NCBI GenBank assembly: GCA_950097015.1
Contig: CATNEN010000003.1
Span: 6,944,001-7,008,000, forward strand
Origin: Macrostomum hystrix
Taxonomy: Eukaryota > Animalia > Platyhelminthes
Length of the DNA: 64,000 nucleotides
Direction: 5' to 3'
The notes under the pieces are model-generated. The model ran no database searches, had not been told where the DNA came from, and was given only the letters and a program-made list of their open reading frames with translations. The position numbers and the translations under genes are program-made. Within the stretch, counting starts at the first letter, position 1. Every line of letters starts with the position of its first letter. Shown in pieces: positions 30,201-55,498 of the stretch.

Positions 30201-33200
30201 TTTAACCTACCACTCTAGAATCTAACCCACCACTCTAGAATCTAACCTACCACTCTAGAATCTAACCTACCACTCTATAATCTAACCTACCACTCTAGAA
30301 TGTAACCTACCACTCTAGAATCTAACCTACCACTCTAGAATGTAACCTACCACTCTAGAATCTAACCTACCACTCTAGAATCTAACCTACCACTCTAGAA
30401 TCTAACCTACCACTCTAGAATCTAACCTACCACTCTAGAATCTAACCTACCACTCTAGAATCTAACCTACCACTCTAGAATCTAACCTACCACTCTAGAA
30501 TGTAACCTACCACTCTAGAATGTAACCTACCACTCTAGAATGTAACCTACCACTCTAGAATGTAACCTACCACTCTAGAATCTAACCTACCACTCTAGAA
30601 TTTAACCTACCACTCTAGAATCTAACCCACCACTCTAGAATCTAACCTACCACTCTAGAATCTAACCTACCACTCTAGAATCTTACCTACCACTCTAGAA
30701 TCTAACCCACCACTCTAGAATCTAACCTACCACTCTAGAATCTAACCTACCACTCTAGAATCTAACCCACCACTCTATAATCTAACCTACCACTCTATAA
30801 TCTAACCTACCACTCTAGAATCTAACCTACCACTCTAGAATCTAACCTACCACTCTAGAATGTAACCTACCACTCTAGAATCTAACCCACCACTCTAGAA
30901 TCTAACCTACCACTCTAGAATCTAACCTACCACTCTATAATCTAACCTACCACTCTATAATCTAACCTACCACTCTAGAATCTAACCTACCACTCTAGAA
31001 TCTAACCTACCACTCTAGAATCTAACCTACCACTCTAGAATCTAACCCACCACTCTATAATCTAACCTACCACTCTATAATCTAACCTACCACTCTAGAA
31101 TCTAACCTACCACTCTAGAATCTAACCTACCACTCTAGAATGTAACCTACCACTCTAGAATCTAACCCACCACTCTAGAATCTAACCTACCACTCTAGAA
31201 TCTAACCTACCACTCTAGAATGTAACCTACCACTCTAGAATCTAACCTACCACTCTAGAATGTAACCTACCACTCTATAATCTAACCTACCACTCTAGAA
31301 TGTAACCTACCACTCTATAATCTAACCTACCACTCTAGAATGTAACCCACCACTCTATAATCTAACCCACCACTCTAGAATCTAACCTACCACTCTAGAA
31401 TCTAACCCACCACTCTAGAAGCTAACCCACCACTCTAGAATCTAACCTACCACTCTAGAATGTAACCCACCACTCTATAATCTAACCTACCACTCTAGAA
31501 TGTAACCTACCACTCTATAATCTAACCTACCACTCTAGAATGTAACCCACCACTCTATAATCTAACCCACCACTCTAGAATCTAACCTACCACTCTAGAA
31601 TCTAACCCACCACTCTAGAAGCTAACCCACCACTCTAGAATCTAACCCACCACTCTAGAATCTAACCTACCACTCTAGAATGTAACCCACCACTCTATAA
31701 TCTAACCCACCACTCTAGAATCTAACCTACCACTCTAGAATCTAACCCACCACTCTAGAAGCTAACCCACCACTCTAGAATCTAACCTACCACTCTAGAA
31801 TCTAACCTACCACTCTAGAATCTAACCCACCACTCTAGAATCTAACCTACCACTCTAGAATCTAACCTACCACTCTAGAATCTAACCTACCACTCTAGAA
31901 TCTAACCTACCACTCTAGAATCTAACCCACCACTCTAGAATCTAACCTACCACTCTAGAATCTAACCTACCACTCTAGAATCTAACCTACCACTCTAGAA
32001 TCTAACCTACCACTCTAGAATCTAACCTACCACTCTAGAATCTAACCCACCACTCTAGAATCTAACCTACCACTCTAGAATCTAACCTACCACTCTAGAA
32101 TGTAACCTACCACTCTAGAATCTAACCTACCACTCTAGAATCTAACCTACCACTCTAGAATCTAACCTACCACTCTAGAATCTAACCTACCACTCTAGAA
32201 TCTAACCTACCACTCTAGAATCTAACCTACCACTCTAGAATCTAACCTACCACTCTAGAATCTAACCTACCACTCTATAATTTAACCTACCACTCTAGAA
32301 TCTAACCTACCACTCTAGAATCTAACCTACCACTCTAGAATCTAACCTACCACTCTAGAATCTAACCCACCACTCTATAATCTAACCTACCACTCTAGAA
32401 GCTAACCTACCACTCTAGAATCTAACCTACCACTCTAGAAGCTAACCTACCACTCTAGAATCTAACCTACCACTCTAGAATCTAACCTACCACTCTAGAA
32501 TCTAACCCACCACTCTAGAATCTAACCCACCACTCTAGAATCTAACCTACCACTCTAGAAGCTAACCTACCACTCTAGAATCTAACCTACCACTCTAGAA
32601 TCTAACCCACCACTCTAGAATCTAACCTACCACTCTATAATCTAACCTACCACTCTATAATCTAACCTACCACTCTAGAATCTAACCTACCACTCTAGAA
32701 TCTAACCTACCAGTCTATAATCTAACCTACCACTCTAGAATCTAACCTTACTACTCTACCAGAGTCTACCCAACCACTGTACCAGAGTCTAACCTACCAC
32801 TCTAGAATCTAACCCACCACTCTAGAATCTAACCCACCACTCTAGAATCTAACCTACCACTCTAGAATCTAACCTACCACTCTATAATCTAACCCACCAC
32901 TCTAGAATCTAACCTACCACTCTAGAATCTAACCTACCACTCTAGAATCTAACCCACCACTCTAGAATCTAACCCACCACTCTAGAATCTAACCTACCAC
33001 TCTATAATCTAACCTACCACTCTAGAATCTAACCCACCACTCTAGAATCTAACCTACCACTCTAGAATCTAACCTACCACTCTAGAATCTAACCTACCAC
33101 TCTAGAATCTAACCTACCACTCTAGAATGTAACCCACCACTCTAGAATCTAACCTACCACTCTAGAATCTAACCTACCACTCTAGAATCTAACCCACCAC

Positions 33201-33900
33201 TCTAGAATCTAACCTACCACTCTATAATCTAACCTACCACTCTAGAATCTAACCTACCACTCTAGAATCTAACCTACCACTCTAGAATCTAACCTACCAC
33301 TCTAGAATGTAACCTACCACTCTAGAATCTAACCCACCACTCTATAATCTAACCTACCACTCTAGAATCTAACCTACCACTCTAGAATCTAACCTACCAC
33401 TCTAGAATCTAACCTACCACTCTAGAATCTAACCTACCACTCTAGAATCTAACCTACCACTCTAGAATCTAACCTACCACTCTAGAATCTAACCTACCAC
33501 TCTAGAATCTAACCTACCACTCTAGAATCTAACCTACCACTCTAGAATGTAACCTACCACTCTAGAATCTAACCTACCACTCTATAATCTAACCTACCAC
33601 TCTAGAATCTAACCTTACTACTCTACCAGAGTCTACCCAACCACTGTACCAGAGTCTAACCTACCACTCTAGAATCTAACCTACCACTCTAGAATCTAAC
33701 CTACCACTCTAGAAGCTAACCTACCACTCTAGACTCTACCAGAGTCTGACCTACAACTCTACCATAGTCTAATCAACCACTCTACCAGAGTCTACCCTAC
33801 CACTCTACCAGAGTCTACCCTACTACTCTACCATAGTCTAATCAACCACTCTACCAGAGTCTACCCTACCACTCTACCAGAGTCTACCCTACTACTCTAC
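24267..33900. repeat. 9.6-kb satellite of 20-bp unit AATCTAACCTACCACTCTAG (about 475 copies, XbaI site in most units)
   Basis: Strict 20-bp periodicity with a few recurrent point variants and degenerate ends. Confidence 0.99.
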
Positions 33901-35516: not shown

Positions 35517-38500
35517 CTATTTCTTCTTCTTCTGCTTCTGCTCCTGCTGATCGGCTGGCCGTCTAGCCTGCTCCAAATCGTCCAGTTTAGTCTCCAGTCT
35601 TCGCTGTAGATGCGCCCTCCTGATGGCCTCCTTATTCGACTTCGGCTGGAAGACAGCGGAGCTGCCGGTAGAGGCGCCTCTTCTAGCCGCGTCTCGAGCA
35701 GCCTGACCGCAGCCGTGAGTCTCCGGCACAAAATGGCTGAAGCAGTAGCGCCTGCGACAATGGCTGCACGCGTGGCCGACAGTTCTGACAGGAGTTGAGC
35801 AGCCAGGCTGACCGCAGGTTGAGTCCATGGCAACAAATTCTGCTAGAAGAGAGTCGAAATCTTCTTCTTTTTCAGTCTGCGGCTTTTCTTTGTCCTTAGC
35901 GGCTCCAGCTTGTCTTGCTTTGGCCTGCTTTGGTAGCTTCTTATTGTTGCTGTCCATTGCCGCTTCTGAAGAGGCTGTGGAAGCAGATGCTTTCGCCTTT
36001 GGGTTGCTGCCGACACCCAGGACAATACCTGGGAATTGGGAGGGCCGGTAGTTAAGCTACATGTATAATGAAGCCTACCTGGCAACAAGCGGACAATTTA
36101 GCAGCGACCATGGCAACCATTAATGAAACCGCAACAAACTATAAAAAGCGTAAATGTAATACAATTAACTTTTGCCTTTTAATACAAGCTTATTACCTCC
36201 AGTCTTGTTTTTGCTTTTCTGACTCCCGGCACCCTGCACAATGTCGTTGACAGCAGCCGTAGCTCCTTCAACAGCTGCTCGCAGTTGACGATTTCTAATC
36301 GCCCGCTCGCAGGCCAATCGGTGAAGGTCGGTGTTGCCAGGGGGCACAGGTTTGCCGCAAACTGGGCAGCTAGGAGCATCCTTAGCAACGGTTGCTGTGT
36401 CCTTAGTAACGTTGGTTGAGTCACTGGCGACGGGTTTTGCTTGGTCAGCAACGCTTTTAGCGTCCTTGGCAACTTTTTTTGAACTTTTAGAAACACTTTC
36501 TACGGCGATAGCAACGGTCGTTGCGCCCTTGGCAACAGTTGTTATCTCCTTAGCAACGGCTGTTGGGTCATTGGCAACAGTTGTTATCTCCTTAGCAACG
36601 GCTGTTGCGTCCTTGGAAACAGTGGTAACATCATTAGTTGCGATGGACGGCTCCTTCGACCCCACAGTAGCGGACACATCAATAGCCGTCGATGTACTTT
36701 TAACGGAATCTATCGCGGATATGTCAATCAATTTTAGGTCTGCGGGCGTCGCAGCTACAGAAGCCGCAGTCTTCTTAGACAAAGAAATCAGCAACACTCT
36801 AGCCCCATCGATTTCATCGTCGTCGATGCTTCGATGCTGCAGTCCCAGAGTTTCGCATTCCTGAATGGCAAGCAAGATAAAAAATTGTTTGTTTTAGGAT
36901 AAACCAAGGGCCATTCCCCGGTGCTCGATTATAATGAAAAAACCAACCTCGTGAAGTCGGGCTCTCTCGTATGGATTCAATCCGACAAAGCGCAATCCAG
37001 GTCCAGCATCTAGGCTGTGAGGGTCGCCGGCGGGAACAAATGTTACACCGAGAGTTTCAGACAGTCCAGTATCAGTTAGAGCGGGTGTTTCTGACTTGGC
37101 GAATAGGCGAACTATTGTTAGCAGTTGCTGAAGTCGCAATTCTTTAGCATCATTTTCTTGTTTCTGCTGCTTTTTATTGCCGCGTTTCTGTTGGCCTTTC
37201 TTTTGCTGCTGCTGCTGCTTGTCAGTCGTAGTGGAAGCTTTAGATGGGATCGCCATGTCTGCGAGAAAACATGAGTAGGGATTTAAATGCACAAGTACAG
37301 GCTTTAGTTGAGGGAATTCTAAATCTAGGATTTTTATGCATAAAAACTCGTGTGTTTATGGATTTAAAAATCATGGGTAAGTTTGGATTTTGGGAAATTT
37401 AAACTGAGACATTTATAAATCACGCTTTGTAATGAGGGCTTCTAAATCTAGTTTTGATTGATAAGGGCTTCTAAATCTAGTTTTGGATTATTAAGGGCTT
37501 CTAAATCTAGTTTTGGAATATTAAGGGCTTCTAAATCTAGTTTTGGAATATTAAGGGCTTCTAAATCTAGTTTTTGATTGATAAGGGCTTCTAAATCTAG
37601 TTTTGATTAATAAAGGCTTCTAAATCTAGTTTTGGATTATTAAGGGCTTCTAAATCTAGTTTTTGATTGATAAGGGCTTCTAAATCTAGTTTTTGATTAT
37701 TAAGGGCTTCTAAATCTAGTTTTTGATTATTAAGGGCTTCTAAATCTAGTTTTGGATTATTAAGGGCTTCTAAATCTTGTTTTTGAATAATAAGGGCTTC
37801 TAAATCTAGCTTTGATTATTAAGGGCTTCTAAATCTAGTTTTGGATTATTAAGGGCTTCTAAATCTAGTTTTGGATTATCAAATGCTTATAAATCTAGGT
37901 TTATGTTAAGGGCTTCTAAATCAACTTTTGCATCAAGGGCTTCTAAATCTAGTTCCATATTGGGGGACCTCTAAACCTAGCATATTCACAAAAAGATGCT
38001 TACCATCCAAAATGTGAGCGAACTCGCTGGCCGACCTAACTTTGGCATTGGCCAGCAGGTAGTCAACAAAGCCGGCTAGTACGGAGTCGCCTCGCCGTAC
38101 AGTGTCGCAGTCGCCAACAATGCACAGGTGCCGCCGAGCCCTAGTCACCGCCACATTCAACCGCCGATGCTCAGCTAAGAAGCCAACAATGCCTTTACGA
38201 TTGGACCTAACCAGCGAGATCACTACGGCTTCCTTTTCGCGTCCCTGGAAACCGTCGACGGAACGAACTTCGACTCGATGCAGTGGCAGATTTCCGGCCG
38301 GCTTGGAAGCTTCCGAACTTGTCCCAGGCCTGTTCTGCTGCTGTTCAATCAGTGCCAAGCGAATGGTTTCCACTTGAAGATTGTAGGGGCTGATGACGGC
38401 TATGTCCGATGGATCCAAACCGCTTTCAACTAGGGCTGCTACATGCTCTGCAATATTATTATGATTTATAAGCACTTTTTATCTTTTCATCTTCTGATTT

Positions 38501-41500
38501 CAAAACGGTTTGCAGAGAAAGCCCAACTCACTCCACTCTCTGTCCTCAAAAAACAACCCCATAGAAAACAGCCACCTCACTCCACTCACTGTCCCGCTAA
38601 CACCCGTCCTAGAAAACACCCACCCCACTCCACTCTCTGCCCGGCTAACACCCGTACTAGAAAACAGCCACCTCACTCCACTCTCTGCCCGGTTAACACC
38701 CGTTCTAGGAAACAGCTACCCCACTCCACTCTCTGCCTGGCTAACACCCGTACTAGAAAACACCCACCTCACTTTAGTATCTGCCCCGCTAAAAGAGAAT
38801 TAGGTCGAATTTAAAACGGTATCAAAAATTTCGAAAGATTGCGAAAAGTTGCGAAAAATTTAGTATCAAGAAAAAACAAATCTCTAAAAAATCCTATAAT
38901 TGGGATTAACGGAGTTGATACCTACTTAAATAACGTACTTCAATATAATTTGATAGAATATAACGATATAATGATAGAAATGACAGCGCTTATAAAGTAT
39001 GTTTACAGCTGTTCATTCCGTGGCCGCCACACCCACCCCAATTTCTAACTGCAGCTGATACTGTCACCCATCTTATAGCTAAATGATTTAAAGCACTGGA
39101 AGATTCGAAATCCTGACCTCTCGGTCAGAAACCCGAAGTTCTAATCGCTGGTCTAAAAGTTCTCATGTTTTTGATCAAACAGAAACAACCCCCGATATTA
39201 CCGGTAAAACTAAGCGATTTGCTTATAAATAAAATTTCTATAAAAAAATGCAAAATATCCTAACAGAGCAACCATCACAAACCGGCAACAATGGCAGCTT
39301 CGCCCGGATTGGCTTTAGACATCTCCGAGTCCTCGTTGTTGAGCTCGGCCAAATCGCATCCGGTTGTATCGATCAATAAAAGCGGCGGAAATTCTTCATC
39401 TTCGGCTACATTCGATGACGCGTCGCGTTGCGTTGCCATGGCAACGGCGGCCAAGCTGGGCAAATCGGCTAGCCGGTGACGCGCTACAGTTTTGTGAGCA
39501 ACCAACCGATCGGAATAGAAAGCGGTCGACGACCAACGCATAATGTCCTCGTGCATCCGGTACTGAACTGTAAGCAGGTGGGTGGCCTCGCCACTTGTTG
39601 GCAGAAGGCGCTCCATTAGGGTGATTGCGTAACCGCCCGCTACGGCTCGTTCACTTTTTATGGTCGGTGGCAACTGGTAGGGATCGCCAGCCAGGATACA
39701 CTTTGGGGCGCGAGGTAGCGCCAGCCAACAGGCAGCTTCGGTGGCCTTTGGGTAGATGCGGATGAAAGATCTTTAAGCTAGCGTCCACCTCACCCCACTC
39801 CGCTCCGATAACACCTCCGTAGAGAAAGCCCACCTCATTCCACTCTCTGCCCCGCTAAAACACTCCATAGATAACACCCACCTCTCTCCACTCGCTGCCC
39901 TACTAAAACAATCCATAGATAACACCCACCTCTCTCCCACTCGCTGCCCTACTAAAACAATCCATAGATAACACCCACCTCTCTCCCACTCGCTGCCCTA
40001 CTAAAACAATCCATAGATAACACCCACCTCTCTCCACTCGCTGCCCTACTAAAACAATCCATAGATAACACCCACCTCTCTCCCACTCGCTGCCCTACTA
40101 AAACAATCCATAGATAACACCCACCTCTCTCCACTCGCTGCCCTACTAAAACACTCCATAGATAACACCCACCTCTCTCCACTCTCTGCCCCGCTAAAAC
40201 ACTCAGCCCCCCTATAGCGGAGTGAGGTGAAGTAATTTCATTCCAACTCTTGCTAGAACCAACCTGAGAGCACTCGTCAATAACAGTAGCATTAAACTGT
40301 ATCTCTTTTAGCGTAGAGTCGTCATTCAGTCCGCCCACAGTCAGAGTGCACAGCACCGCTTGAGCTCGTGACAGTATCGCTTTAACGCAATTGGCCTCTC
40401 GTTGACGCAACTCCGATCTTAGATGAGATAATTCAGCGCCGATCCGACGATCGCGTCGATGGCCTTTGCCGCCGCCACCGCTAAGCAGTTTGTCAATATC
40501 GGCTCGAACATCGGCGATGATGCGGCGATCTTCGCTGCGCGCCAGCAGGGCGTCAAGAGAATGCTCGGCAACCTGAGGCAACTGTCTGGCCGGGTGGCCG
40601 AGACGGACGCAACGGATGCCGGCCGCGATTAGACGTTCGGCAAGGTTGTCCACCTGATGGTCACGAGAACAGAAGAGGAGTGAGAGGAGAAGAGGCAATG
40701 TATGTAATAAATATTTGAGTTTAAATTACTCGCTAAATGCGGCAAACAATGAAGGATATTTGCAGGGGTGAGTGGCAGAGCGGTCTAACGCGTCTGCCTC
40801 TCGCACCAAGGTTCCTAAACTCGATTCCGCGGCAAGGCCACATTTATTTGCAGAGGCACACTGAGAGTGTACACAGCCTGACGATGAGAAAGAATGTGCT
40901 CAGAAGAATTGCCCAGTCGCCGGCTGCGGGTCTACTGACCCTACTCAAAATGTTTATCAGCAGAAGCTTAAAATAACAACTAACCGATATGTATCGAAAA
41001 ACCCATAATCTAAATCTGGCGTGCAAGCCAAGCTATAGGCCAAAAAAGAAACAAAAAACAGAGCAGCTCACTGCGGTGTTGGAAGGCGCGCAGCACAGTA
41101 GCCGCTCGCCCCTAGCAACCAGCTGACGGACCAGCTCTACCAGAGTGGTAGTCTTCCCCGTGCCTGGCGGGCCATGGATCATCACCAGATCACTGCGCCG
41201 AAGGCCCAGCTCCACGGCGGCGCGCTGGGATTCGTCCAGATTGGGATTGAAGTACACGATTTTATTAGCGCCAGACTCCGTAGGCTCAGCGGGGAGGTCA
41301 CGCGTTGGTCCCAGAGACCGTTCGCCTAGCAACAGGTCGGCTAGGGGCGGCGGACTTCTCAGTAGAGCTAGTAGGCCCCTGTGTTTGAAGGCATTTTTAT
41401 ACATACACTAGGCACAAATTTATTATCCCGGAAATTCTGAGACAAACTATCTATTGCTGCGTACAGCTGTTCAGTCCGTGGACATCATAGGGAGCCGTCC

Positions 41501-42230
41501 CATGGGCTGAGTGGCAGAGCGGCTAACGCGTTTGCCTTTTGCACTAAGGTCCCTGAGCTCGATTCCACGGAGAGGTCACAACGCCATTGAGGGCCAACCT
41601 CCAAGGCACAGTGAGTGTACACTGCCCGACGGTGAGAAAGTCAGAGGAATGGGGAGAATATTGCCTCCTCGCTGGCTGCGGGTCTAGTGTCACCTGATGT
41701 ACCAGTGCCCGCATTCCTGACTGATTGAAGTGATTGACATACTATCTTACTCTTACAAGCAGCAAAATGAATCCTCACTTTTTAAGCCTTTTAAAAGTGA
41801 CATCGGAGCCAAGCTTCACAACACTAAATCTGCAGCCAATGTCCATTTGCGTGGAGTCTCCACCGGAGATAAGCTGATCAGGTTCAACTGCAACATAGAT
41901 AGACCTGGATAGCACCTTTGTGACAATGCCGGATACAATCTGCTGCTGCTGCTGCTGTTGCTGAGAATGAAACACGCCGACAATATCGCCAGAAGCTATA
42001 GAATGCGACGGTAGATCTTTAGATTTTTGATAAGTTTCAAACTCAAGCACGCGGCGACCGTACATTCCAGTGGATTGGTTGGCCAAATAGACCTTGTGCA
42101 AAGCCAAGCCTTTGTCTTGCAATGCTCGCGCTGACGACTTCAACAGATCCTCTTCGGCTGCCATCTCTTCTTGACGTTCAAGAGACACCAACTCCAGCTG
42201 GTGCTGAACGAATTCCTCCAACTGTTGCAT
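35517..42230 (-). CDS. IGHMBP2: IGHMBP2/SMUBP-2 SF1 helicase with R3H and AN1 zinc finger; exons 41779-42230, 41072-41378, 40264-40653, 39283-39745, 38004-38447, 36948-37258, 36197-36860, 35517-36028
   Basis: Walker A HGPPGTGKTTT, CAPSNTAVDNL, RLGHPAR, IDECSQ, AGDPYQLPPT, QYRMH, SPYNLQV, SVDGFQGREKE, RRLNVAVTRARR; R3H-like ERARLHE; AN1 finger C..PGC..C.HC..YC..H..PE.H.C. All introns are GT-AG with matching phases. Confidence 0.94.
37434..37952. repeat. 29-30-bp minisatellite (AAGGGCTTCTAAATCTAGTTTTGGATTATT) in IGHMBP2 intron
   Basis: Direct tandem periodicity. Confidence 0.94.
38560..38790. repeat. 48-bp C-rich minisatellite in IGHMBP2 intron
   Basis: About 5 copies of AGAAAACAGCCACCTCACTCCACTCTCTGCCCGGCTAACACCCGT-like units. 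Confidence 0.85.
39785..40205. repeat. 48/49-bp C-rich minisatellite in IGHMBP2 intron, related to the 38560 array
   Basis: About 8 copies of ACTAAAACAATCCATAGATAACACCCACCTCTCTCCCACTCGCTGCCCT. Confidence 0.9.
40765..40942 (+). mobile_element. tRNA-derived SINE copy 1 (internally deleted)
   Basis: A-box TGGCAGAGCGG, B-box-like CTCGATTCC, and body motifs (CTGACGATGAGAAAG, GGCTGCGGGTCTA) shared with copies at 41503 and 62470. Confidence 0.75.
41503..41725 (+). mobile_element. tRNA-derived SINE copy 2
   Basis: Same tRNA-like head. Body TGAGGGCCAACCTCCAAGGCACAGTGA..GAGAAAGTCAG..TTGCCTCCTCGCTGGCTGCGGGTCTAGTGTCACC. Confidence 0.78.
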
Positions 42231-42299
42231 CGCTTTTTCCTTGGGTTTCTGCTTGCTTCTGGTGCTGACAAGAAATTTATTGGACGAAATGTTGTGCTT

Positions 42300-42550
42300 A
42301 ACTATCTAAACTTAACTGTGCTCAACTAAATTTAATCAACTATGCTTAACTGTACTCAGTTGTGCTCATTTAAATACACTCAACTAAATCTACTCAATTG
42401 TGCTCGACTAAATCTACTCAACTGTGCTCAACTAAATCTACTTAACTGTGCTCGAATAAAAGGATTCAACCGTGCTCAACTAAGTCGACTAAACTGTGCT
42501 TAACAGCTCTTAACTGTGCTCTATTGAATCTACTCAACAGGGTTCAACTG
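42300..42550. repeat. Degenerate ~24-bp repeat (AACTGTGCTCAACTAAATCTACTC) upstream of IGHMBP2
   Basis: About 10 diverged tandem copies. Confidence 0.75.
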
Positions 42551-43415: not shown

Positions 43416-46400
43416 TCAGCCAACAACTCTCTCGTAGCAGTATAGATAGCCCATATGTTTAGGAGGCTCATTCGAAACGCACACCTTGTCGTCGTTAAAT
43501 ATGTACCAGACGTTGCCCCGACGAAGATGGCACACATAGTGACCGCTGTGCGTTGAAGCACCCATGTGGCTAATGAAGCCTAGTAGGCGATAATTTGGCG
43601 GTCCATCTGTTGGCGCTCGTGAATGAGCCGGCTCGCCGAAGCCAGTCTCGCCAGCTCCGGCGGTACTATAACTGGCGTTAGCAGCATCGGGGATGTCCGG
43701 CGCATTCAGTTCGTCCATATGGGAGAAAATCCAGTCGACGGCTCGTTCGGCGCTGTTGTCAGTCTGTTTCAGAGCTCTAGCTGCCTGCTCAGGCGTGAAT
43801 CCCATGGCAACAATGGATTCGACAGCTTCAGCGTTGGGAATAAATGCCGATTTGGCCGCGGCTGCTGTTGATGTCCGCGACGGCGGCGGTGGCAGGTCAA
43901 AGTCCGCATCCTGACTATGATCCATGGCCCAGTTGATAGCGGCTTCAAGACCGCCGCCTCGAGTGGCCAGCACCGCTCGGGTGGCGCCGTGTTCGCTGAA
44001 GCCGAGCTCGCGCACCTGAGCTACCAGCGACTGGTCCACCTGGGGGATGGGATTATTCTAGGATTATAAAGTATTTCCCCGACTTCTCGAGCTTTTGAGC
44101 CTATTCATAGTTATTATTGGGATTCCGATCCCATTTTATATTATTATTCGGATTCTAATACCATTTATGGCTATTAATCGGATTCTGATCCCATTTATGG
44201 CTATTATTCGGATTCTGATCCCATTTATGGCTATTATTCGGATTCTGATCCCATTTATGGCTATTATTCGGATTCTGATCCCATTAATGGTTATTATTCG
44301 GATTCTGATCCCATTAATGGTTATAATTCGGATTCTGATCCCATTAATGGCTATTATTCGGATTCTGATCCCATTAATGGCTATTATTCGGATTCTGATC
44401 CCATTAATGGTTATTATTCGGATTCTGATCGCATTAATGGTTATTATTCGGATTCTGATCCCATTAATGGCTATTATTCGGATTCTGATCCCATTAATGG
44501 CTATTATTCGGATTCTGATCCCATTAATGGTTATTATTCGGATTCTGATCCCATTAATGGTTATAATTCGGATTCTGATCCCATTAATGGTTATTATTCG
44601 GATTCTGATCCCATTAATGGTTATTATTCGGATTCTGATCCCATTTATGGTTATTATTCGGATTCTGATCCCATTTATGGTTATTATTCGGATTCTGATC
44701 CCATTAATGGTTATTATTCGGATTCTGATCCCATTCATGGTATCACTAGGATATTATACTAGGTTATTACTAGGATTATGATCCCATCATACATTCAATT
44801 ATAGTTACTTTATTTTAGGTTTAGGATCCCGGTCAATGCAATCTTTGAATGACTGTATCTCTGTCAGAGTGATAAAAAATAGGGATTTTTATCCCCAGCC
44901 AAGTAAATGGCGCTCACCAGAGGCTCCGCAGCAGCGGCCGTCGATTCAGCGGGAAATGCGAGCTCAACTTCGCCAGGCTGCAGGCCGCCGCCGGCGCGGA
45001 GAAAGCCCAGATCAACAAACTCCGGCACGTCTAATTCGATGTCCAGCTTCTTCGGGCACCAGTTGTTGTCGATGGTAAATTTTCTGGCGTGCAGCATAAG
45101 GTAGTCGGGAAAGCTAGCCAGGCGACTCTGCTTATTAGCTGGGCCTTTCGCGTTGGTGGCCGGACTAAAGAAATCTTCGATAGTCTCGGCTGCGGCAAAG
45201 GCTTCAAGGCAGGCCTTCAACGATACAGTCCGAGGCGCAAGCTGTTGATCAGCTTCGCCGGAGGCGCCGCCAATCGTAGAAACTCCAGCGGCAGAGTCGT
45301 CCAACGGGATAGGGAATGATAGGGACAGTTCTCGTCTCTGTTTGTAAGCTACGCGATTTGAAACGCAGCATTGAATGCGCTCTTCGATGTCGAATGCGAA
45401 CACGCTGCCGGGATTAGAACGGTGAACACTGCTGCGCTCCACCTGGCCTAGCAGGTGAAGAAAGTATTCGAAGGCGTCCTGCTGCCGAGTGCTGGAGAAC
45501 TCCGCGTGGCCGCGACCCACCTGCGGGCGGAATGGATTGTTGGGTCAGGTGTGTCGTGTGTGTCAGCTAATTGAGTCAGGTGTGTCAGCTGATTGAGTCA
45601 GGTGTGTGTCAGCTGATTGAGTCACGTGTGTGTCAGCTGACTGAGTCTGGTGTGTGTCTGCTGGTTGAGTCACGTGTGTGTCAGCTGATTGAGTCTGGTG
45701 TGTGTCAGCTGATTGAGTCAGGTGTGTGTCAGCTGATTGAGTCTGGTGTGTCAGCTAGGTGATTGAGGTGTTTCAGCTAGGTAACTCAGGAGTGTCAGCT
45801 ATGTAACTCAGGAGTGTCAGCTAGGTAACTCAGGAGTGTCAGCTATGTAACTCAGGAGTGTCAGCTAGGTAACTCAGGAGTGTCAGCTAGGTAACTCAGG
45901 AGTGTCAGCTAGGTAACTCAGGAGTGTCAGCTAGGTAACTCAGGAGTGTCAGCTAGGTAACTCAGGAGTGTCAGCTAGGTAACTCAGGAGTGTCAGCTAG
46001 GTAACTCAGGAGTGTCAGCTAGGTAACTCAGGAGTGTCAGCTAGGTAACTCAGGAGTGTCAGCTAGGTAACTCAGGAGTGTCAGCTAGGTAACTCAGGAG
46101 TGTCAGCTAGGTAACTCAGGAGTGTCAGCTAGGTAACTTAGGTGTGTCAGCTAGGTAACTCATGAGTTACCTGCAGGAGTGTCAGCTAGGTAACTCAGGA
46201 GTGTCAGCTAGGTAACTCAGGAGTGTCAGCTATGTAACTCAGGAGTGTCAGCTAGGTAACTCATGAGTTACCTGCAGGAGTGTCAGCTAGGTAACTCAGG
46301 AGTGTCAGCTAGGTAACTCAGGAGTGTCAGCTAGGTAACTCAGGAGTGTCAGCTAGGTAACTCAGGAGTGTCAGCTAGGTAACTCAGGAGTGTCAGCTAG

Positions 46401-48312
46401 GTAACTCAGGAGTGTCAGCTAGGTAACTTAGGTGTGTCAGCTAGGTGAGTCAGGTGTCTAAGCTACGTGAGTCAGCTAGACTCGCAGATTAAGCAGGCTA
46501 AAGCATGACTAACCAATGTCTTCAGCATCTGAGGCCGGACACCGTAACTAGGCGCTAGATCACCAGGCTTAGGCGAAGGCACTTCCACAGCTAGGCCATC
46601 CACACTTGGCGGCGAATATTGACCAGAAAGCAGGCCGTGAGCAACTTTGGCCAGTTGAACATCCAGACTGTTGATTGGGTCGGTTGTATCCCGCTCCAAT
46701 ATGTCATATCGCTGCTCAAAGTAGCGATTAACAAAAGCTGGCACAGAGAACAGAAGCTGCAGAACGGAATTCATGTAGCAGGAGTTGCCAAGGTTGCGAA
46801 GGCCGGTGAGTCCCGGACCTCCAGCTGGTTGCAGCGCCTTGCCAGTCTCCTGAATAGAGTCCCACTCCTTCATGTTGGCTTCGATTTCTAATTCGTTCAT
46901 TGTTTTATCAACCTTTCGCATAGCCATTAGATCGATGCCGAAGTGTTTGAGATGCTGCTCAAGCTTGCTATCCAATACCATATTGTCCTCAGCGTATGAG
47001 TACACATCGGCGCCTTGAGCACAGATGGTGCCAAGTTTTACAGCTAGCGGATAGCCGGTCTTATCGTAGTGCTCAACTGCGTGATTGTTACCGCCGGAGC
47101 CGTCAAAGTAGCGCCGGCCGCAGTGGATGGCACCGTCGGTCAAGTTAAGCCAGAGATTGTCGCGCTTGTCACAATTGGCGCACTGCCAACCACTGGGTGG
47201 GATTTTAATCCCATTGTCCAGTTGAACTAGCTTAGCAGAGTGCTTGGATTCTTGCCGTGTTTCGCCCTCCCAGGTGTTCGTAGCCTAATTAACGAAAATT
47301 TTAGTGATTAACAGTTAAAATAAATTTTTTACTTAAAGTTTGAAGGGTTCTGGCAAGAGGATGCAAAAATTGGGTGGTGGGTGCGGAGGGGTTAGAGTCG
47401 GAAGGGTTCTGGCGAGAGGGAGTGAAATTTGGGGTGGTGGGCGCGCTGGGGTTAGAGTCGGAAGGGTTCTGGCGAGAGGGAGTGAAATTTGGGGTGGTGG
47501 GCGCGCTGGGGTTAGAGTCGGAAGGGTTCTGGCGAGAGGGAGTAAAATTTGGGGTGGTGGGCGCGCTGGGGTTAGAGTCGGAAGGGTTCTGGCGAGAGGG
47601 AGTAAAATTTGGGGTGGTGGGCGCGCTGGGGTTAGAGTCGGAAGGGTTCTGGCGAGAGGGAGTGAAATTTGGCGTGGTGGGCGCGGTGGGGTTAGAGTAG
47701 AAAGGGTTCTGGCGAGAGGGAGTAAAATTTGGGGTGGTGGGCGCGCTGGGGTTAGAGTCGGAAGGGTTCTGGCGAGAAGGAGTGTGCCCTGAAGTGGTGG
47801 GTGCGGAAGTTAGATTGCAGAAATATATATCTTACCTGAGCCAAAAGCTCCAACATGTGCGCCGACTGGGCGGCCAACACACCGTCAACACTAGCCCGAA
47901 CTAGTTCTGGCAAATTATCGCTTGGTAACGGCATAGCAACGCCTTCCGGCATCAGATAGAGGGAGTTGATCTCCTCGAAAACAAATTGAGACTCGTTGCC
48001 AGCAAAGCCGTCGGACGTTCCAATAGCAAGGCGAGTTGGCTTCTTAGCTGGCGGATCTTCCACAGTCGATGGCACCTCCTTCCAGCGACGAATGCGCCGA
48101 TGCTGTAGGTAAAGTCTATGGCCATACCTGGTGTAGTACAACTGCAGATAGTCGCGACCAACGCCGTGAAACGATTTCAAACAGATGAATAGGCCGTGCT
48201 CGCTGTCTGGACTGTCGCAAGAGTACACGCACTCGTCTTTGTAGACTCGACTGTGTTCATTGGGCACGGAACATTGGCTAGAGGCCAAGCTAGCTAGCAG
48301 TTGCTGATCCAT
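43416..48312 (-). CDS. USP5: Ubiquitin carboxyl-terminal hydrolase USP5/USP13 (isopeptidase T); exons 47836-48312, 46514-47284, 44918-45520, 43416-44039
   Basis: nUBP (VYKDECVYSCDSP), ZnF-UBP (NLWLNLTDGAIHCGRRYFDGSGGNNHA..YPLAVKLGTI..DVYSY), Cys box GLRNLGNSCYMNS, QQDAFEY, two UBA domains, His box HMGASTHSGHYVCH, FNDDKV. All introns are phase 0 GT-AG. Confidence 0.95.
44128..44740. repeat. 30-bp minisatellite (CCATTAATGGTTATTATTCGGATTCTGATC) in USP5 intron 3
   Basis: About 20 direct copies. Confidence 0.96.
45545..46470. repeat. Compound minisatellite: 24-bp (TGTGTCAGCTGATTGAGTCAGGTG) grading into 22-bp (AGGTAACTCAGGAGTGTCAGCT) in USP5 intron 2
   Basis: Two related tandem units sharing GTGTCAGCT. 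Confidence 0.94.
47341..47790. repeat. 60-bp G-rich minisatellite in USP5 intron 1
   Basis: About 7.5 copies with GGG/GGGG runs. Confidence 0.95.
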
Positions 48313-48509
48313 TTCTGATTAGATTCGTTATATATTAATTCCAGATAACTTCGTTAATAGTTTTCGATTCTTTGACGATACTCAGGGCTGTGGAATGAAT
48401 TCAAACTTGAAATGTTTTAAACAGTTTACGATGTATTTTCTTCATTCCAGGGCGAGGGAAAAAACTTCAAAACCATGATTCAGTGGCCCCTTTAAAACAG
48501 AGAGAAATT

Positions 48510-50131: not shown

Positions 50132-51225
50132 TACATTCCTGATTGAACGAGAGGGTCAATGTACATTCCTGATTGAACGAGAGGGTCAATGTACATTCCG
50201 GATTGAACGAGAGGGTCAATGTACATTCCTGATTGAACGAAAGGGTCAATGTACATTCCGGATTGAACGAGAGGGTCAATGTACATTCCGGATTGAACGA
50301 GAGGGTGAATGTACATTCCGGATTGAACGAGAGGGTGAATGTACATTCCGGATTGAACGAGAGGGTCAATGTACATTCCTGATTGAACGAGAGGGTCAAT
50401 GTACATTCCGGATTGAACGAAAGGGTCAATGTACATTGTGGATTAAACGAGAGGGTCAATGTACATTCCGGATTGAACCAGAGGGTCAATGTACATTCCT
50501 GATTGAACGAGAGGGTCAATGTATATTCCGAATTATATTTTCATTGCAAATGTACATTCCGGATTGAACAAGAGGGTCAATGTACATTCCGGATTGAACA
50601 AGAGGGTCAATGTACAGTCCAGATTGAACAAGAGGGTCAATGTACAGTCCAGATTGAACAAGAGGGTCAATGTACATTCCGGATTGAACGAGAGGGTCAA
50701 TGTACATTCCGGATTGAACGAGAGGGTCAATGTACATTCCGGATTGAACGAGAGGGTCAATGTACATTCCTGATTGAACGAGAGGGTCAATGTATATTCC
50801 GAATTATATGTTCAATGCAAATGTACATTCCGGATTGAACAAGAGGGTCAATGTACATTCCGGATTGAACAAGAGGGTCAATGTACAGTCCAGATTGAAC
50901 AAGAGGGTCAATGTACAGTCCAGATTGAACAAGAGGGTCAATGTACATTCCGGATTGAACAAGAGGGTCAATGTACAGTCCAGATTGAACAAGAGGGTCA
51001 ATGTACAGTCCAGATTGAACAAGAGGGTCAATGCACAGTCCAGATTGAACAAGAGGGTCAATGTACAGTCCAGATTGAACAAGAGGGTCAATGTACAGTC
51101 CAGATTGAACAAGAGGGTCAATGTACAGTCCAGATTGAACAAGAGGGTCAATGTACATTCCGGATTGAACAAGAGGGTCAATGTACATTCCGGATTAGAT
51201 GTTCAATGCAAATGTACATTCCAGA
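50132..51225. repeat. 30-bp minisatellite (ATGTACATTCCGGATTGAACGAGAGGGTCA) with recurring variant spacer unit
   Basis: About 36 copies. A variant GAATTATA..TTCA.TGCAA unit recurs at ~50530, ~50800 and ~51195. Confidence 0.95.
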
Positions 51226-51494
51226 TCGATAAGAGAGTGTGGGAAGTTCAAATTTATGGGGGCGTCAAATTTAAAATTACGACCTTGTATTTGGAAACTA
51301 AATTTTTATCAGAACCGCTGTCTAAACAACATATATAATAAATAATTGATAAACAGGCTGAGGTCGACTAATAAAATAACGGAATAAAATATTGAATGAG
51401 AACAACAGTTAGAACAGCAGAATAGCAAAAAAGCAAAGATAAGTAACTCCACGCCAGTTATAAAGTCCGACTAGAAATTTGATGCACAAAGTGA

Positions 51495-51899
51495 TCAGCC
51501 CTGCTGCTGCAAAGCGGCCTCCATTTCAGCCATTGATTTCTCAGTCTTGCTCATACCTGCCATGTTGATGCCGAAGTGTTTGAGATGCTGCTCAAGCTTG
51601 CTATCCAATACCATATTGTCCTCAGCGTATGAGTACACATCGGCGCCTTGAGCACAGATAGTGCCAAGTTTTACAGCTAGCGGATAGCCGGTCTTATCGT
51701 AGTGCTCAACTGCGTGATTGTTACCGCCGGAGCCGTCAAAGTAGCGCCGGCCGCAGTGGATGGCACCGTCGGTCAAGTTAAGCCAGAGATTGTCGCGCTT
51801 GTCACAATTGGCGCACTGCCAACCACTGGGTGGGATTTTAATCCCATTGTCCAGTTGAACTAGCTTAGCAGAGTGCTTGGATTCTTGCAAGTCGGACAT
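51495..51899 (-). CDS. Stand-alone ZnF-UBP (ubiquitin C-terminus-binding) domain protein, 134 aa, paralog of the USP5 zinc finger
   Basis: Intact ORF with upstream acceptor ttttcag (51925), A-rich context aaacaATG, complete ZnF-UBP motif and its own stop. Positions 51567-51888 are 321/322 nt identical to USP5 46934-47255. Confidence 0.75.
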   Translation of the reverse strand: MSDLQESKHSAKLVQLDNGIKIPPSGWQCANCDKRDNLWLNLTDGAIHCGRRYFDGSGGNNHAVEHYDKTGYPLAVKLGTICAQGADVYSYAEDNMVLDSKLEQHLKHFGINMAGMSKTEKSMAEMEAALQQQG

Positions 51900-52742
51900 T
51901 GTTTTGTTTCAAAAAATTATAGATCTGAAAATTTATGGGATTTCTTAAATAATTAGAACGACCTTTGTAACCTTCAAGATAGCTGTTCCTATTGGCGAGA
52001 GCAGTAACTTGATAGTCCATTCACCCGATAGCGACTGTAAGGTAGAAAGAATACTTTGTGGCCAATTTTCAAATTTCTGATTGCAAAGACAATTGAATAC
52101 TACCTTTGTGTCATTGTGTGTCATTATGTGTCATTTCTTAAACAGCTAATATTACCAAATTCAACTGTTAATACATCAATACAATAGGTACAACGTATAC
52201 ATACCTTTGTTGGCTAGTATGCTTAATATTAATAGGTAAAAACTCTTATTTAAGGGATGTAGTAGAAAATGCACTAATAACTGTCTTAATGGGCACTAAA
52301 TGTTTCAGTGGAGTCTGGAATCGAACCTATGACAACACTATCTAGGCTACTACTAATAAGTAGTATAGTAACAGAAAATAAATGGAAACTAAGCGACATG
52401 TGAAGTGAAATGCTACTAAAAAAGTTCTTCAAAAAGCATTTCAATGCATTGAATTTTATTTTAAATAGAAATTCGAGTTCACATTAATAAATGACACATT
52501 TATCGAAAAAATGACATGTTTAAAAATGAAATCTCTGAGCACAAAGCATAACGTTTTTTTAGTTTTTAGCACATATTCTAATTCTTTGGATTCTAACTGC
52601 ATTTCCAGAAAGGGGGGGTTAGATTGGCTAGTTCTAAAATAATATTTTCAAAAATGAGCATTTTATACAAAATTGTGATAGACCAAAATATAGGTTCAAC
52701 AAGTTAATATCTAATTTTTTTTAACAACTAAAAGTGAATTTG

Positions 52743-54197
52743 TTAAACACTCAGATCAATATGCCTCAACCATTTGCACAATAATAGCCTACTACCAGAC
52801 ACTAATCTTCGCCTAGGCTTGTGCAAGTTTACCAGATTCAAAAAGCAAAAATCCGCCAGTCGAACCATATTTAACAGGCTTCTACTGCCTATTAACGGCA
52901 AAAAGCACAGTCTAGCATCCGAGGTGAAATTGCCGCTAGCAATGGCCGATTTTAAATCAGCGCGCAAGCATTCGTGATGAGCCTCGGCTGATTCGGTGAT
53001 TTCTCTAACTAGACTAGCTAGCTTTTTGCCAGCATCAGTAGGCTGGCTGGGTGTTGAACGCACAGCCGACAATAGATCCTGCTGGGTGACGATGCCATGT
53101 CGACGAAGATCGGCTGTGGGCAGCTCGCAGCGACCCCGGTGAACGAACAAGTTGGCCGAGGCAGATAAGAATCGGAGCAGGCCAGTAAGTCTGGAGGAGT
53201 TGAGTCAGACAATCTTACTTATATTTTCCTTAATTTAACTACAATTTAATCAATCCAACATAGTCAACAAAGAGAGCCGACATGATTACACAATCAAATT
53301 TCGTGAGCAAAAAATTATTGGAGGTACGCAAGAAGGGCGATGGTACAAAGCATCAATACCGAAGGACATGTTAACGATGCTTCAATAGTACAAATGTTCG
53401 TTATGGAACCGAGAAACCTGGTATTAAATACTACAAAGGCTTCACTTGGAAAAGTAGAGCTGGATAAAAAATCTAAGAAACTTAAAAAGTGTAGAGATGA
53501 TTTCGTCTACTGGGCCGCGTCGATTGAAAGATTCGAACTTGATACCTTTTTGTTGTTTTAGTAGTATTAAAGCAAATAAAGATTTAGCTCCGTCTTACCT
53601 CCCAGCGTGACTAGCAGCCGAATAGGCTGTTGGACAAGCTTCCTTAGTAACGCCCGACGCGTGAAGCATAGAATAATAGACAGGAGAGAATGCGGCCTCA
53701 CAGTAGCGATGCAGCTCGGCCATATCTGAGCACACCCGGCCGTCTAAGTAGCGCTCTCTAGCAACTAGCAGTTTCTCTAGATAGTGTCTGGGCAGACGAT
53801 TACTGCGCACCACCTTCTCCAGTTCTCGAACTACAGGATATTCTCCTGGAACTATCTGACTAGAAGCTGTTGAAGATTCGCCGTCAGAATTTGTCGACTC
53901 GGCGTAGATTAAATCGAGACAGTCGCGCCAATAGCGCATTCTCATCTGGGCCAACTGTGCATCGGCGTTAGAGTCTCTAATCTGTGCCAATTCGATGCTG
54001 TAGGCGCTAACAGCAATGGCACAGCGCCTAATGGAGCTGGGCATTAGCAAAGCGCATGAATGAAAATGGCCATCTGCTAGGCGCACTACATTGGAACAAT
54101 ACTCGCTTGGATTCGGATACTGAGAATCTGGTTGGGTTGCTAGGTGACGAGTGGCATGCCTAGCAACATATATAAGTCTAGTTAATTTGATGATAGC
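52743..54197 (-). CDS. NDUFAF6: NADH dehydrogenase complex I assembly factor 6 (squalene/phytoene synthase fold); exons 53599-54197 (or -54177) and 52743-53190
   Basis: YC..VVR.AD....CALLMP, ELAQIRD, MRMRYWRD, PVVREL, AASHAG, LP..LRRHGI..QD match NDUFAF6. Arg-rich, acid-free N-terminal presequence. Phase-2 GT-AG intron. Start codon source uncertain. Confidence 0.87.
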
Positions 54198-55154
54198 CTG
54201 AAATAATTATTAGTTGTTAAGGTTAAGTTAGTTTTTTAACATACAAGTAAACTGTGTAATTAATCAGCTTATTATTAGAAAAATTGATTACTAGTTAATA
54301 ATTTAAATGTCTAAAAATATGGGCCTCACCTTAACATTCAGATACCTCAACTCAACTTGTCAACTCAGCTGATGCCAAAGGACTGGCCAACAAAGGCCGA
54401 TCAACTGAGGCCTAGAAAGCTTGTCTCAAACACAAACTGGGCTAAACCATGAAAGAGGCTAATAAAGTCTAAGTCATAGCACCCACCCTATACCGACTAG
54501 GCTATTCTAAGGTATCCAAAAGGCCAGTTTATAGAAGCCTTGAAAGTAGAGTGGTGGGACCCTTTAGGGAGGCCACTGCAACAGCTGGAGCAGAAACCAT
54601 AGTACAACCAATGGCAGAGAATGTGGAGAGTCTCCTTGGGGGGCAAGACCTTTGCTACCAAAGCCAAAGCTGTTAAGAGTAAAAAAAATTTAAAACATGT
54701 AATTGAGATAGGGCCCAATTTATACAATTCCTAGAAACCATTCCCTGCGAAAATTTAGTATTTTGTTTAACTTTACATAAAATTTGCTTGAATGCACCAA
54801 TTTGTTTAATCACACTGAAAATGAAAGGTTTTAATGAAGTTGCGGAGGTGAGGAGGAGGAGAAGTTTTAGTATAAATACACACAAGCGAAAGAGAGAAGA
54901 AATTAACCCTTGTTTGAGACAGAGTTCAGAAAAAAGAAAGCTTGAATCTTGAAGTGATCGTGTTGAAGTTATTTGAAAGAGACATTGCGAAAGAAAAGTA
55001 AACAGACTACAGAGTAAAGGAGAGCTGTAAATCTAGATCCACTGATAAAAGCCCAAGATGGACTGAAGATTGAATTAAAGATTGATTGAAGAGTAATTGA
55101 ATAGTGATAAAAACGTATAAAGAGTGATAAAGAATGATAAAAGAGGGATAAAGA

Positions 55155-55498
55155 GGTCCCAGGTCATTTCGGTGACAAGACATTTCGGTGACATCGTTTT
55201 GGTGACAAAATGGGTCAGTTTGGTGACAACTATTCTTGCACCTGAATATGCTTAGGAAACAGCCTTCCAGTTCCATGTGCGTAGAAAACAGCCTTCCATG
55301 TGAACTACGCACACCTATTAAGTATTATTAAATAATGATGAATAATAATGATTAGTTCACATGGAAGGCTGTTTTCTAAGCATATTCAGGTGCAAGAATA
55401 GTTGTCATTAAACTGACCAATTCTGTCACCGAAACGACTTGAGTTGTCACCGAAATGACTGTCACCGAAATGTCTTGTCACCGAAATGACCTGGGACC
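55155..55498. mobile_element. Non-autonomous DNA transposon (MITE/foldback type), 344 bp, long TIRs, 8-bp TSD
   Basis: Termini GGTCCCAGGTCATTTCGGTGACA ... TGTCACCGAAATGACCTGGGACC, internal inverted arms, and flanking direct repeat GATAAAGA (55147-55154 and 55499-55506). Confidence 0.9.

Follow-up and report, generated by a model that had tools for sequence, protein, structure and literature searches.

The window analysed here, a 64,000-nucleotide stretch of Macrostomum hystrix DNA (contig CATNEN010000003.1, positions 6,944,001 to 7,008,000), carries on its minus strand a small single-exon gene encoding a stand-alone ZnF-UBP domain, with the gene for the deubiquitinase USP5 downstream of it on the same strand (Table 1). 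We conclude that this mini-gene is very probably a real protein-coding gene that is kept matched to USP5 by gene conversion, and that it belongs to the ZnF-UBP domain family rather than to the USP enzymes. The homogenised block of the mini-gene and its partner in USP5, offset by 4633 bases, differ at only 1 of 322 bases, and this sole difference (51660 versus 47027, ACT/ACC) is synonymous, with Thr in both; the match described in the original prediction was thereby reproduced exactly. The mini-gene has codons of its own on both sides of the block, four ahead of it and 23 behind. As also predicted, the copy has an acceptor, a start codon and a stop codon of its own, the ATG lying 25 nucleotides downstream of the acceptor AG, and its tail, although diverged at the DNA level, aligns to USP5 without gaps over about 18 codons (30/54 bases and 6/18 residues identical). 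The USP5 exon is the only long match of positions 51200-53300 in a blastn comparison with the window. Pfam assigns a single domain to the 134 residues, zf-UBP (E 1e-17, 64.5 bits against a cut-off of 22.7), and the reading frame stops 23 codons past the block. The USP catalytic domain, nUBP and UBA of the USP5/13 deubiquitinases are all lacking, in agreement with the description of the copy as catalytically empty.

The mini-gene is transcribed and trans-spliced. Eight public runs were compared as contigs, four over positions 51200-55050 and four over 51200-52250. Although none of the listed matching runs is recorded as RNA, X2, X3, X6 and X7 are taken as RNA by inference: X2 has a spliced intron, X3 has a spliced leader, and the cover of X6 and X7 (tagged 'DNA?') stops at transcript-like ends. 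X2 and X3 belong to one study, and X6 and X7 to another. X2 and X3 each contain one 89-letter contig that matches 51859-51925 and then continues with 22 loose letters. In X3 these letters are the reverse complement of part of the 35-nucleotide Macrostomum lignano spliced leader (PMC8629364); the loose end of X2 lies at the same position. The acceptor also fits the [T/C]TNCAG motif of PMC8629364. Both runs carry the copy's own tail as well, with contigs that continue past the 3' end of the mini-gene into a tandem array, and the tail contigs of X6 and X7 end at 51285 and 51284, respectively, 20 bases past GATAAA. Transcript contigs covering the unique tail, which the original prediction had set as a check, are thus seen in two studies, and in X3 the spliced leader is joined at 51925.

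The contigs, used in place of long reads, also argue that the copy is no artefact, the second check that had been set. Specifically, one X6 contig spans 51285-51888 with zero mismatches, the copy's own letter at 51660 included; therefore, this letter is real and linked to the tail. The contigs of the DNA run X1, which may be the source of the assembly itself, break exactly at 51567 and 51888, and extend through unique sequence on both sides (51200-51596 and 51859-54776). At the block's 5' edge (51888/51889), the records share just 30 letters with the block, one short of the bridging rule. The 5' piece of the mini-gene was not seen in X6 or X7, where a stretch without cover proves nothing. In the X6 contig, the 5' part of USP5 was also seen to lead into the block, here bearing the copy's allele, and on into the copy's tail; this run into USP5 is most simply, and likely, a graph path through the shared block, and an allele produced by unequal crossover would give the same shape. 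Runs X9, X10 and X11, whose codes point to other organisms, match at 99-100% identity over the compared pieces and so hold no cross-species information; the copy's tail was found in none of the three. Additionally, we observed that the terminal ATG of the spliced leader is out of frame with the start of the mini-gene and opens a 20-codon frame (51924-51860, minus strand) that overlaps this start, while the equivalent frame of USP5 ends before the start codon. The overlapping frame is a possible translational brake on the mini-gene.

Orthologs are present in M. lignano. Among the short relatives listed by a search there was no Macrostomum protein, but eight proteins make up the 90% cluster of M. 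lignano USP5, including two of 133 and 137 residues (P0242 and P0243), whose accessions are consecutive with those of two USP5 copies and which lie on equally long contigs. They are 86-87% identical to the window's mini-protein, begin like it with MSD-L/R-Q and end in a related tail. Two further models, P0245 and P0246, join the mini-gene in frame to USP5, placing two or three genes of the locus in 670 or 1232 residues; these fusions are likely operon mis-annotations. The M. lignano orthologs are already in the databases, as hypothetical proteins or as fused models. Since they adjoin USP5 there too, the duplicate is older than the split of the two species, and the proposal of an old paralog is well supported by the common start and the related tail. 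A single binding domain adjoining its parent is here older than its sequence identity implies. Independent duplication in each species was also considered; it fails to explain the shared start, tail and position.

We compared the three mini-proteins and three USP5s over 128 positions at the protein level. Within block codons 5-111, six sites group by species and none by paralog, while in the flanks eight sites group by paralog and none by species (Fisher p 3.3e-4; about 0.002, calculated by hand, without the three N-terminal sites). At position 69, one residue is common to the mini-protein and USP5 of one M. lignano contig, as against the other contig, a pattern that polishing of the M. lignano assembly could mimic. 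Residue identity of the block is 107/107 in the window, and 106/107 and 104/107 within the two M. lignano contigs, versus 99/107 between species. A tree of the flanks (22 residues) places the mini-proteins together (100/99) and likewise the USP5s (97/96), and the approximately unbiased test rejects pairing of the window's two copies (p 0.018). The DNA-level comparison of the block covers the window alone (321/322), and the cross-species evidence is at the protein level. Parallel change was considered as well and fails to explain 321/322 bases. These patterns strongly point to repeated non-allelic conversion between copies 4.6 kb apart. Both M. lignano mini-proteins have Met31 where USP5 has Lys, so that either the conversion tracts are patchy or this site is selected. 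The original prediction of a recent homogenisation with USP5 therefore stands as to homogenisation, the species-pattern sites occurring only in the block and the paralog-pattern sites only in the flanks; repeated conversion fits better than a single recent event.

The tail outside the block is constrained, yet relaxed relative to that of USP5. Between the two species, 10/18 tail residues of the mini-protein are identical, compared with 17/18 for USP5 and with 60-71% identity for the neighbouring synthase-fold gene. On a profile built from 63 full-length outgroup tails (outgroup median 45.4 bits, tenth percentile 30.8), the three mini-proteins score 37.8, 33.7 and 36.2 bits, and the Macrostomum USP5s 42.4 and 38.9. 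Neutral base changes were then simulated in the 54 bases, starting from real outgroup tails, in 20,000 trials. With 12 changes, the window's score was reached in 13/20,000 trials and the lower M. lignano score in 49/20,000; with 18 or 24 changes, the scores of the mini-proteins were reached in 0/20,000. Drift from the window's USP5 tail, scored on a motif-filtered profile, reached the mini-protein's score in 0/100,000 trials. Residues 120-129 alone score 19-22 bits on the family profile, and residues 112-119 probably belong to the fold. The tail thus keeps the family pattern, which supports the selected copy that had been proposed, although it evolves faster than that of USP5. A further idea, that the tail of the mini-protein is nearer to the family consensus than that of USP5, was dropped: it holds on the motif-filtered profile only (36.1 vs 27.0) and is reversed on the unfiltered one (37.8 vs 42.4).

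The predicted structure places the mini-protein with the USP5 zinc finger. The AlphaFold2 model has a mean predicted local distance difference test score of 88.6, with a helix at residues 123-130 of low confidence. USP5 ZnF-UBP crystal structures are its best Foldseek matches, with a root-mean-square deviation of 0.8-1.4 Å over about 110 residues; residues 5-121 match residues 13-129 of 2G43. Specifically, C29, C32, C49 and H62, which we take to be the zinc ligands, correspond to USP5 residues 199, 202, 219 and 232. Residues W39, R51, Y53, Y89, Y91 and D94 correspond to USP5 209, 221, 223, 259, 261 and 264, reportedly the pocket positions given by Reyes-Turcu in 2006. All 10 of the 10 zinc and pocket positions checked are identical to USP5, while the non-binding USP13 domain (P0054) departs at these pocket positions. 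A rule of one Arg plus aromatic residues has been described for the Gly-Gly pocket (PMC13493902). By its sequence, the ZnF-UBP of the mini-protein is of the USP5 type, and since the domain is identical to that of USP5, the mini-protein is predicted, with high confidence, to bind free ubiquitin.

Table 1 Features of the mini-gene locus in the window.
Feature	Position	Strand	Evidence or detail
Stand-alone ZnF-UBP open reading frame	51495..51899	minus	single exon, 134 residues, ATG at 51899, TGA at 51497-51495
Homogenised block, codons 5-111, corresponding to the predicted folded ubiquitin-binding domain	51567..51888	minus	321/322 bases identical to USP5; site patterns
Partner block in USP5 exon 2 (ZnF-UBP of the enzyme)	46934..47255	minus	sequence match and Pfam
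Tail specific to the paralog (codons 112-134), with homology to the USP5 segment 3' of the zinc finger	51498..51566	minus	
Start codon of the copy and three N-terminal residues specific to the paralog, common to the M. lignano orthologs	51889..51899	minus	
Trans-splice acceptor TTTTCAG (AG at 51926-51925) and 25-nucleotide 5' untranslated region	51900..51931	minus	loose letters at 51925
3' untranslated region of the mini-gene, with likely poly(A) signal variant GATAAA at 51310-51305	51285..51494	minus	X6 and X7 contig ends
Parent USP5 gene, four exons, ATG at 48312, inferred 5' acceptor 48388	43416..48387	minus	tblastn, Pfam
Squalene/phytoene-synthase-fold gene, upstream of the mini-gene	52477..54198	minus	Pfam SQS_PSY

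The exons of the parent gene are 68-84% identical to M. lignano USP5 (tblastn) and encode the Pfam domains zf-UBP_var, zf-UBP, UCH and UBA. The best full-length match of the USP5 exon is M. lignano USP5 (84%), other animals reaching 56-60%. On the other side of the mini-gene lies the synthase-fold gene, presumably NDUFAF6, for which X2 provides a spliced contig with 24 loose 5' letters. The same order (synthase-fold gene, mini-gene, USP5) is found in the fused M. lignano model P0245. A published rule for Macrostomum operons asks for same-strand neighbours less than 1 kb apart after repeat subtraction (PMC8629364). The gap between the mini-gene and the last covered base of the upstream gene is 551 nucleotides, and that between the mini-gene and USP5 is 820 nucleotides once two tandem arrays are removed, both under 1 kb. 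The upstream gene and the mini-gene are likely in one operon, and by the published distance the mini-gene may be co-transcribed with USP5. The trans-splice acceptor of USP5 is likely at 48388, 76 nucleotides before the ATG, rather than the AG 2 nucleotides before it. In X3 and X6, contigs of 582 and 604 letters, against 581 expected, fit an end at 48388 without and with a 23-letter leader, respectively, and these sizes suggest that USP5 also receives a spliced leader.

Several other elements surround these genes. A SMUBP-2/IGHMBP2-type helicase gene (35517-42305, minus strand; Pfam SMUBP-2_HCS1_1B, AAA_11, AAA_12 and zf-AN1) begins on the same strand about 1.1 kb past the USP5 stop, and with it the operon may comprise four genes. 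Each of the three USP5 introns, like the gap between mini-gene and USP5, contains minisatellites of its own, and a 20-nucleotide tandem array of about 473 copies occupies 9.5 kb (24267-33738). An inverted repeat at 55194-55437 has 76-nucleotide arms that are 92% complementary, in a stretch that resembles a small mobile element. Dispersed repeats at 52287-52347, 53241-53290 and 54700-55050 collect many X1 contigs with high summed depth; the first resembles, by eye, a tRNA-derived element.

Overall, the best explanation for the mini-protein is a cap or decoy without cutting activity, in competition with USP5 for free ubiquitin ends, an explanation to which we give an even chance. A transcript with its own spliced-leader 5' end and its own tail is made from the mini-gene, possibly co-expressed with USP5 from one operon, and conversion would keep codons 5-111 matched while the start and the tail remain distinct. 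The protein is probably made and folded, because conservation extends to its start, its frame, its tail and the position of its stop. It would then grip ubiquitin in free form, and unanchored chains at their proximal end. In the weakest step, an occupied chain end, and activating mono-ubiquitin too, would be withheld from USP5, and chain disassembly would be tuned. The ZnF-UBP of USP5 anchors the proximal ubiquitin, and free ubiquitin accelerates the enzyme (PMC13493902); unanchored chains act as signals and as proteasome competitors (PMC7659471). A decoy role directed at USP5 itself falls just short of an even chance. A freely diffusing ZnF-UBP cap that is conversion-tuned to its parent and tunes deubiquitinases in trans, damping USP5 and activating product-inhibited USPs, is put forward more tentatively. 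A complex prediction with the M. lignano mini-protein and full USP5 gave a score of 0.00, which is evidence neither way.

Several observations weigh against this explanation and its premises. Contigs of X1, X2, X3, X7, X9 and X11 carry only the USP5 letter at 51660, as may happen because only one member of such a pair survives contig assembly. Identical rows were collapsed in the tree of the block, which is therefore uninformative, and the tail of the mini-protein is, as described above, less conserved than that of USP5. The 20-codon frame opened by the leader ATG could lower translation of the mini-gene. Since ZnF-UBP affinities range from 6 to about 175 µM and free ubiquitin is at about 20 µM (PMC13493902), a lone domain would mostly fill with mono-ubiquitin; moreover, the mini-protein is without the additional ubiquitin sites through which USP5 gains avidity for chains. 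Strong competition would need a high or local concentration of the mini-protein, so bulk buffering is unlikely, and among the roles of sensor, buffer and decoy that had been proposed, it appears the weakest. Finally, the conversion may be a by-product of proximity, and the matching to USP5 need not be selected, because ubiquitin barely changes.

Two other functions would account for parts of these data, and we regard both as unlikely. The mini-protein could be a product-capture factor that soaks up the ubiquitin released by product-inhibited USPs and so activates them in trans. It has the matching ZnF-UBP-only architecture; USP16, USP15 and USP21 became more active when a USP16 ZnF-UBP engineered for high affinity was supplied in trans, and the same study suggested that there might be activating exo-factors (PMC13493902). 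However, that effect needed an affinity-raised mutant and was seen with three catalytic domains of the panel, the USP5 catalytic domain showed no mono-ubiquitin binding (PMC13493902), and the tie to USP5 is left unexplained. Alternatively, the mini-protein could block USP5 from substrates or partners that dock on the zinc-finger surface, with conversion selected for tracking of that surface, which would account for the sharing of species-specific surface changes. A peptide of USP5 residues 206-244 displaces the enzyme from Cav3.2 channels (PMC4955966); by residue offset this segment lies inside the block, at residues 36-74 of the mini-protein, and the same argument has been made for CARD16 and CASP1 (PMC11630849). 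Yet no flatworm partner is known, and Met31 versus Lys in M. lignano shows that the matching is imperfect.

The mini-gene could also be a near-neutral operon passenger of little function, whose frame is kept by copying from USP5. With an essential gene as donor, conversion would mend 80% of the frame at no cost, the persistence of residues 112-119 may serve folding alone, the tail evolves faster, and no second lineage was found in the searches given below. Nevertheless, the start, tail, frame and stop, none of them converted, are kept in three copies from two species whose neighbouring gene is only 60-71% identical, and the family-profile score of residues 120-129 speaks against it too; we therefore see little chance for a passenger. 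It is very improbable that the mini-gene is, solely or additionally, an alternative first exon spliced into USP5 to give an enzyme with an extra zinc finger. P0245 and P0246 do join the two in frame, but P0245 also swallows the synthase-fold gene, as expected of mis-annotated operons; there is no loose end or joint near the stop in X3, X6 and X7 (9 records) or among the X2 matches listed, although contigs drop rare transcript forms, and X6 and X7 contigs pass the stop into the 3' untranslated region. Least credible of all is that the copy is an artefact of assembly or polishing, or that it arose very recently by partial duplication; the near-identity of the block and the single letter at 51660 in six runs could be cited in favour. 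This reading is opposed by the X6 contig that carries the copy's letter into the tail, by the unique flanks in DNA and transcript contigs, and by the presence of the gene in the M. lignano assembly with species-specific residues in the block.

The mini-protein has counterparts among known systems. The ZnF-UBP of USP5/isopeptidase T (PF02148; PDB 2G43, 2G45, 6DXH and 3IHP) has the same fold and pocket, and the mini-protein spans about the isolated domain that was crystallised, as a separate gene. The closest logic appears to be that of CARD16 and caspase-1, by analogy: CARD16 and CARD17 are domain-only, converted neighbours of CASP1 in primates that inhibit by competition (PMC11630849). Like them, the mini-protein is a single binding domain duplicated from a neighbouring protease and very probably converted repeatedly, competition with the parent being reported for the CARDs. 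Unlike it, the CARDs bind homotypically in a fast-evolving immune pathway, whereas the likely ligand of the mini-protein is near-invariant ubiquitin, its parent is a housekeeping deubiquitinase, and its setting is a trans-spliced operon. The USP16 N85Y 'sequester domain' is likewise a free ZnF-UBP that captures the ubiquitin C-terminus in trans, but it is engineered and affinity-raised, while the mini-protein is natural and of the USP5 type (PMC13493902). The ZnF-UBPs of HDAC6 and BRAP2 also lie outside USP enzymes and bind free ubiquitin ends (PMC13493902); unlike the mini-protein, they sit in large enzymes, and that of HDAC6 is about 17-20% identical by structural alignment. The human ZnF-UBP set, as given in PMC13493902, consists of 14 enzymes with no ZnF-UBP-only protein.

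We also searched for a second lineage with such a gene. None was found among the best 120 of 563 short matches plus five cluster members, nor among 19 short proteins of 135 new identifiers (from the best 150 of 1470 representatives). A search with the tail region gave one match, a USP5 fragment. Loci with two zinc fingers numbered 0/80 in metagenomes, where 15/80 had 5 kb upstream and 42/64 parts were scanned, and in the ESM Atlas only general zf-UBP clusters matched. Ten further clusters yielded a flatworm singleton and a pair of short, unnamed proteins from Varroa, which were not inspected. These negatives are weak, because a converted copy hides in its parent's cluster. In the literature searched, which leaves out most subscription journals, no published account of a natural eukaryotic ZnF-UBP-only protein or of the M. 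lignano mini-proteins was found, and nothing links Macrostomum with USP5, or a deubiquitinase zinc finger with gene conversion; nor did this literature yield a divergence time. As a separate observation, USP5 of Cordylochernes scorpioides (P0122, 1144 residues) contains the stretch with nUBP and ZnF-UBP twice, as identical internal copies, perhaps through an error of assembly or annotation.

The means by which cells detect or protect free ubiquitin and unanchored chains are still an open question. So far, ZnF-UBP domains in isolation have served as reagents in the laboratory, and natural product-capture factors have been suggested (PMC13493902). A natural single-domain version in M. lignano, for which transgenesis is reported, together with a unique 3' untranslated region through which the mini-gene could be knocked down selectively, makes the question testable in an animal. 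As a practical consequence, RNA interference or read mapping directed at the Macrostomum USP5 zinc finger affects both genes. Domain-only genes that are hidden in their parent's cluster or in fused models may be under-counted. The pattern of converted, domain-only decoys would be extended from immune caspases to a housekeeping deubiquitinase, and if the proposed role is true, the mini-protein would be a natural counterpart, in a genetically tractable regenerating flatworm, of an exo-factor that has only been engineered so far.
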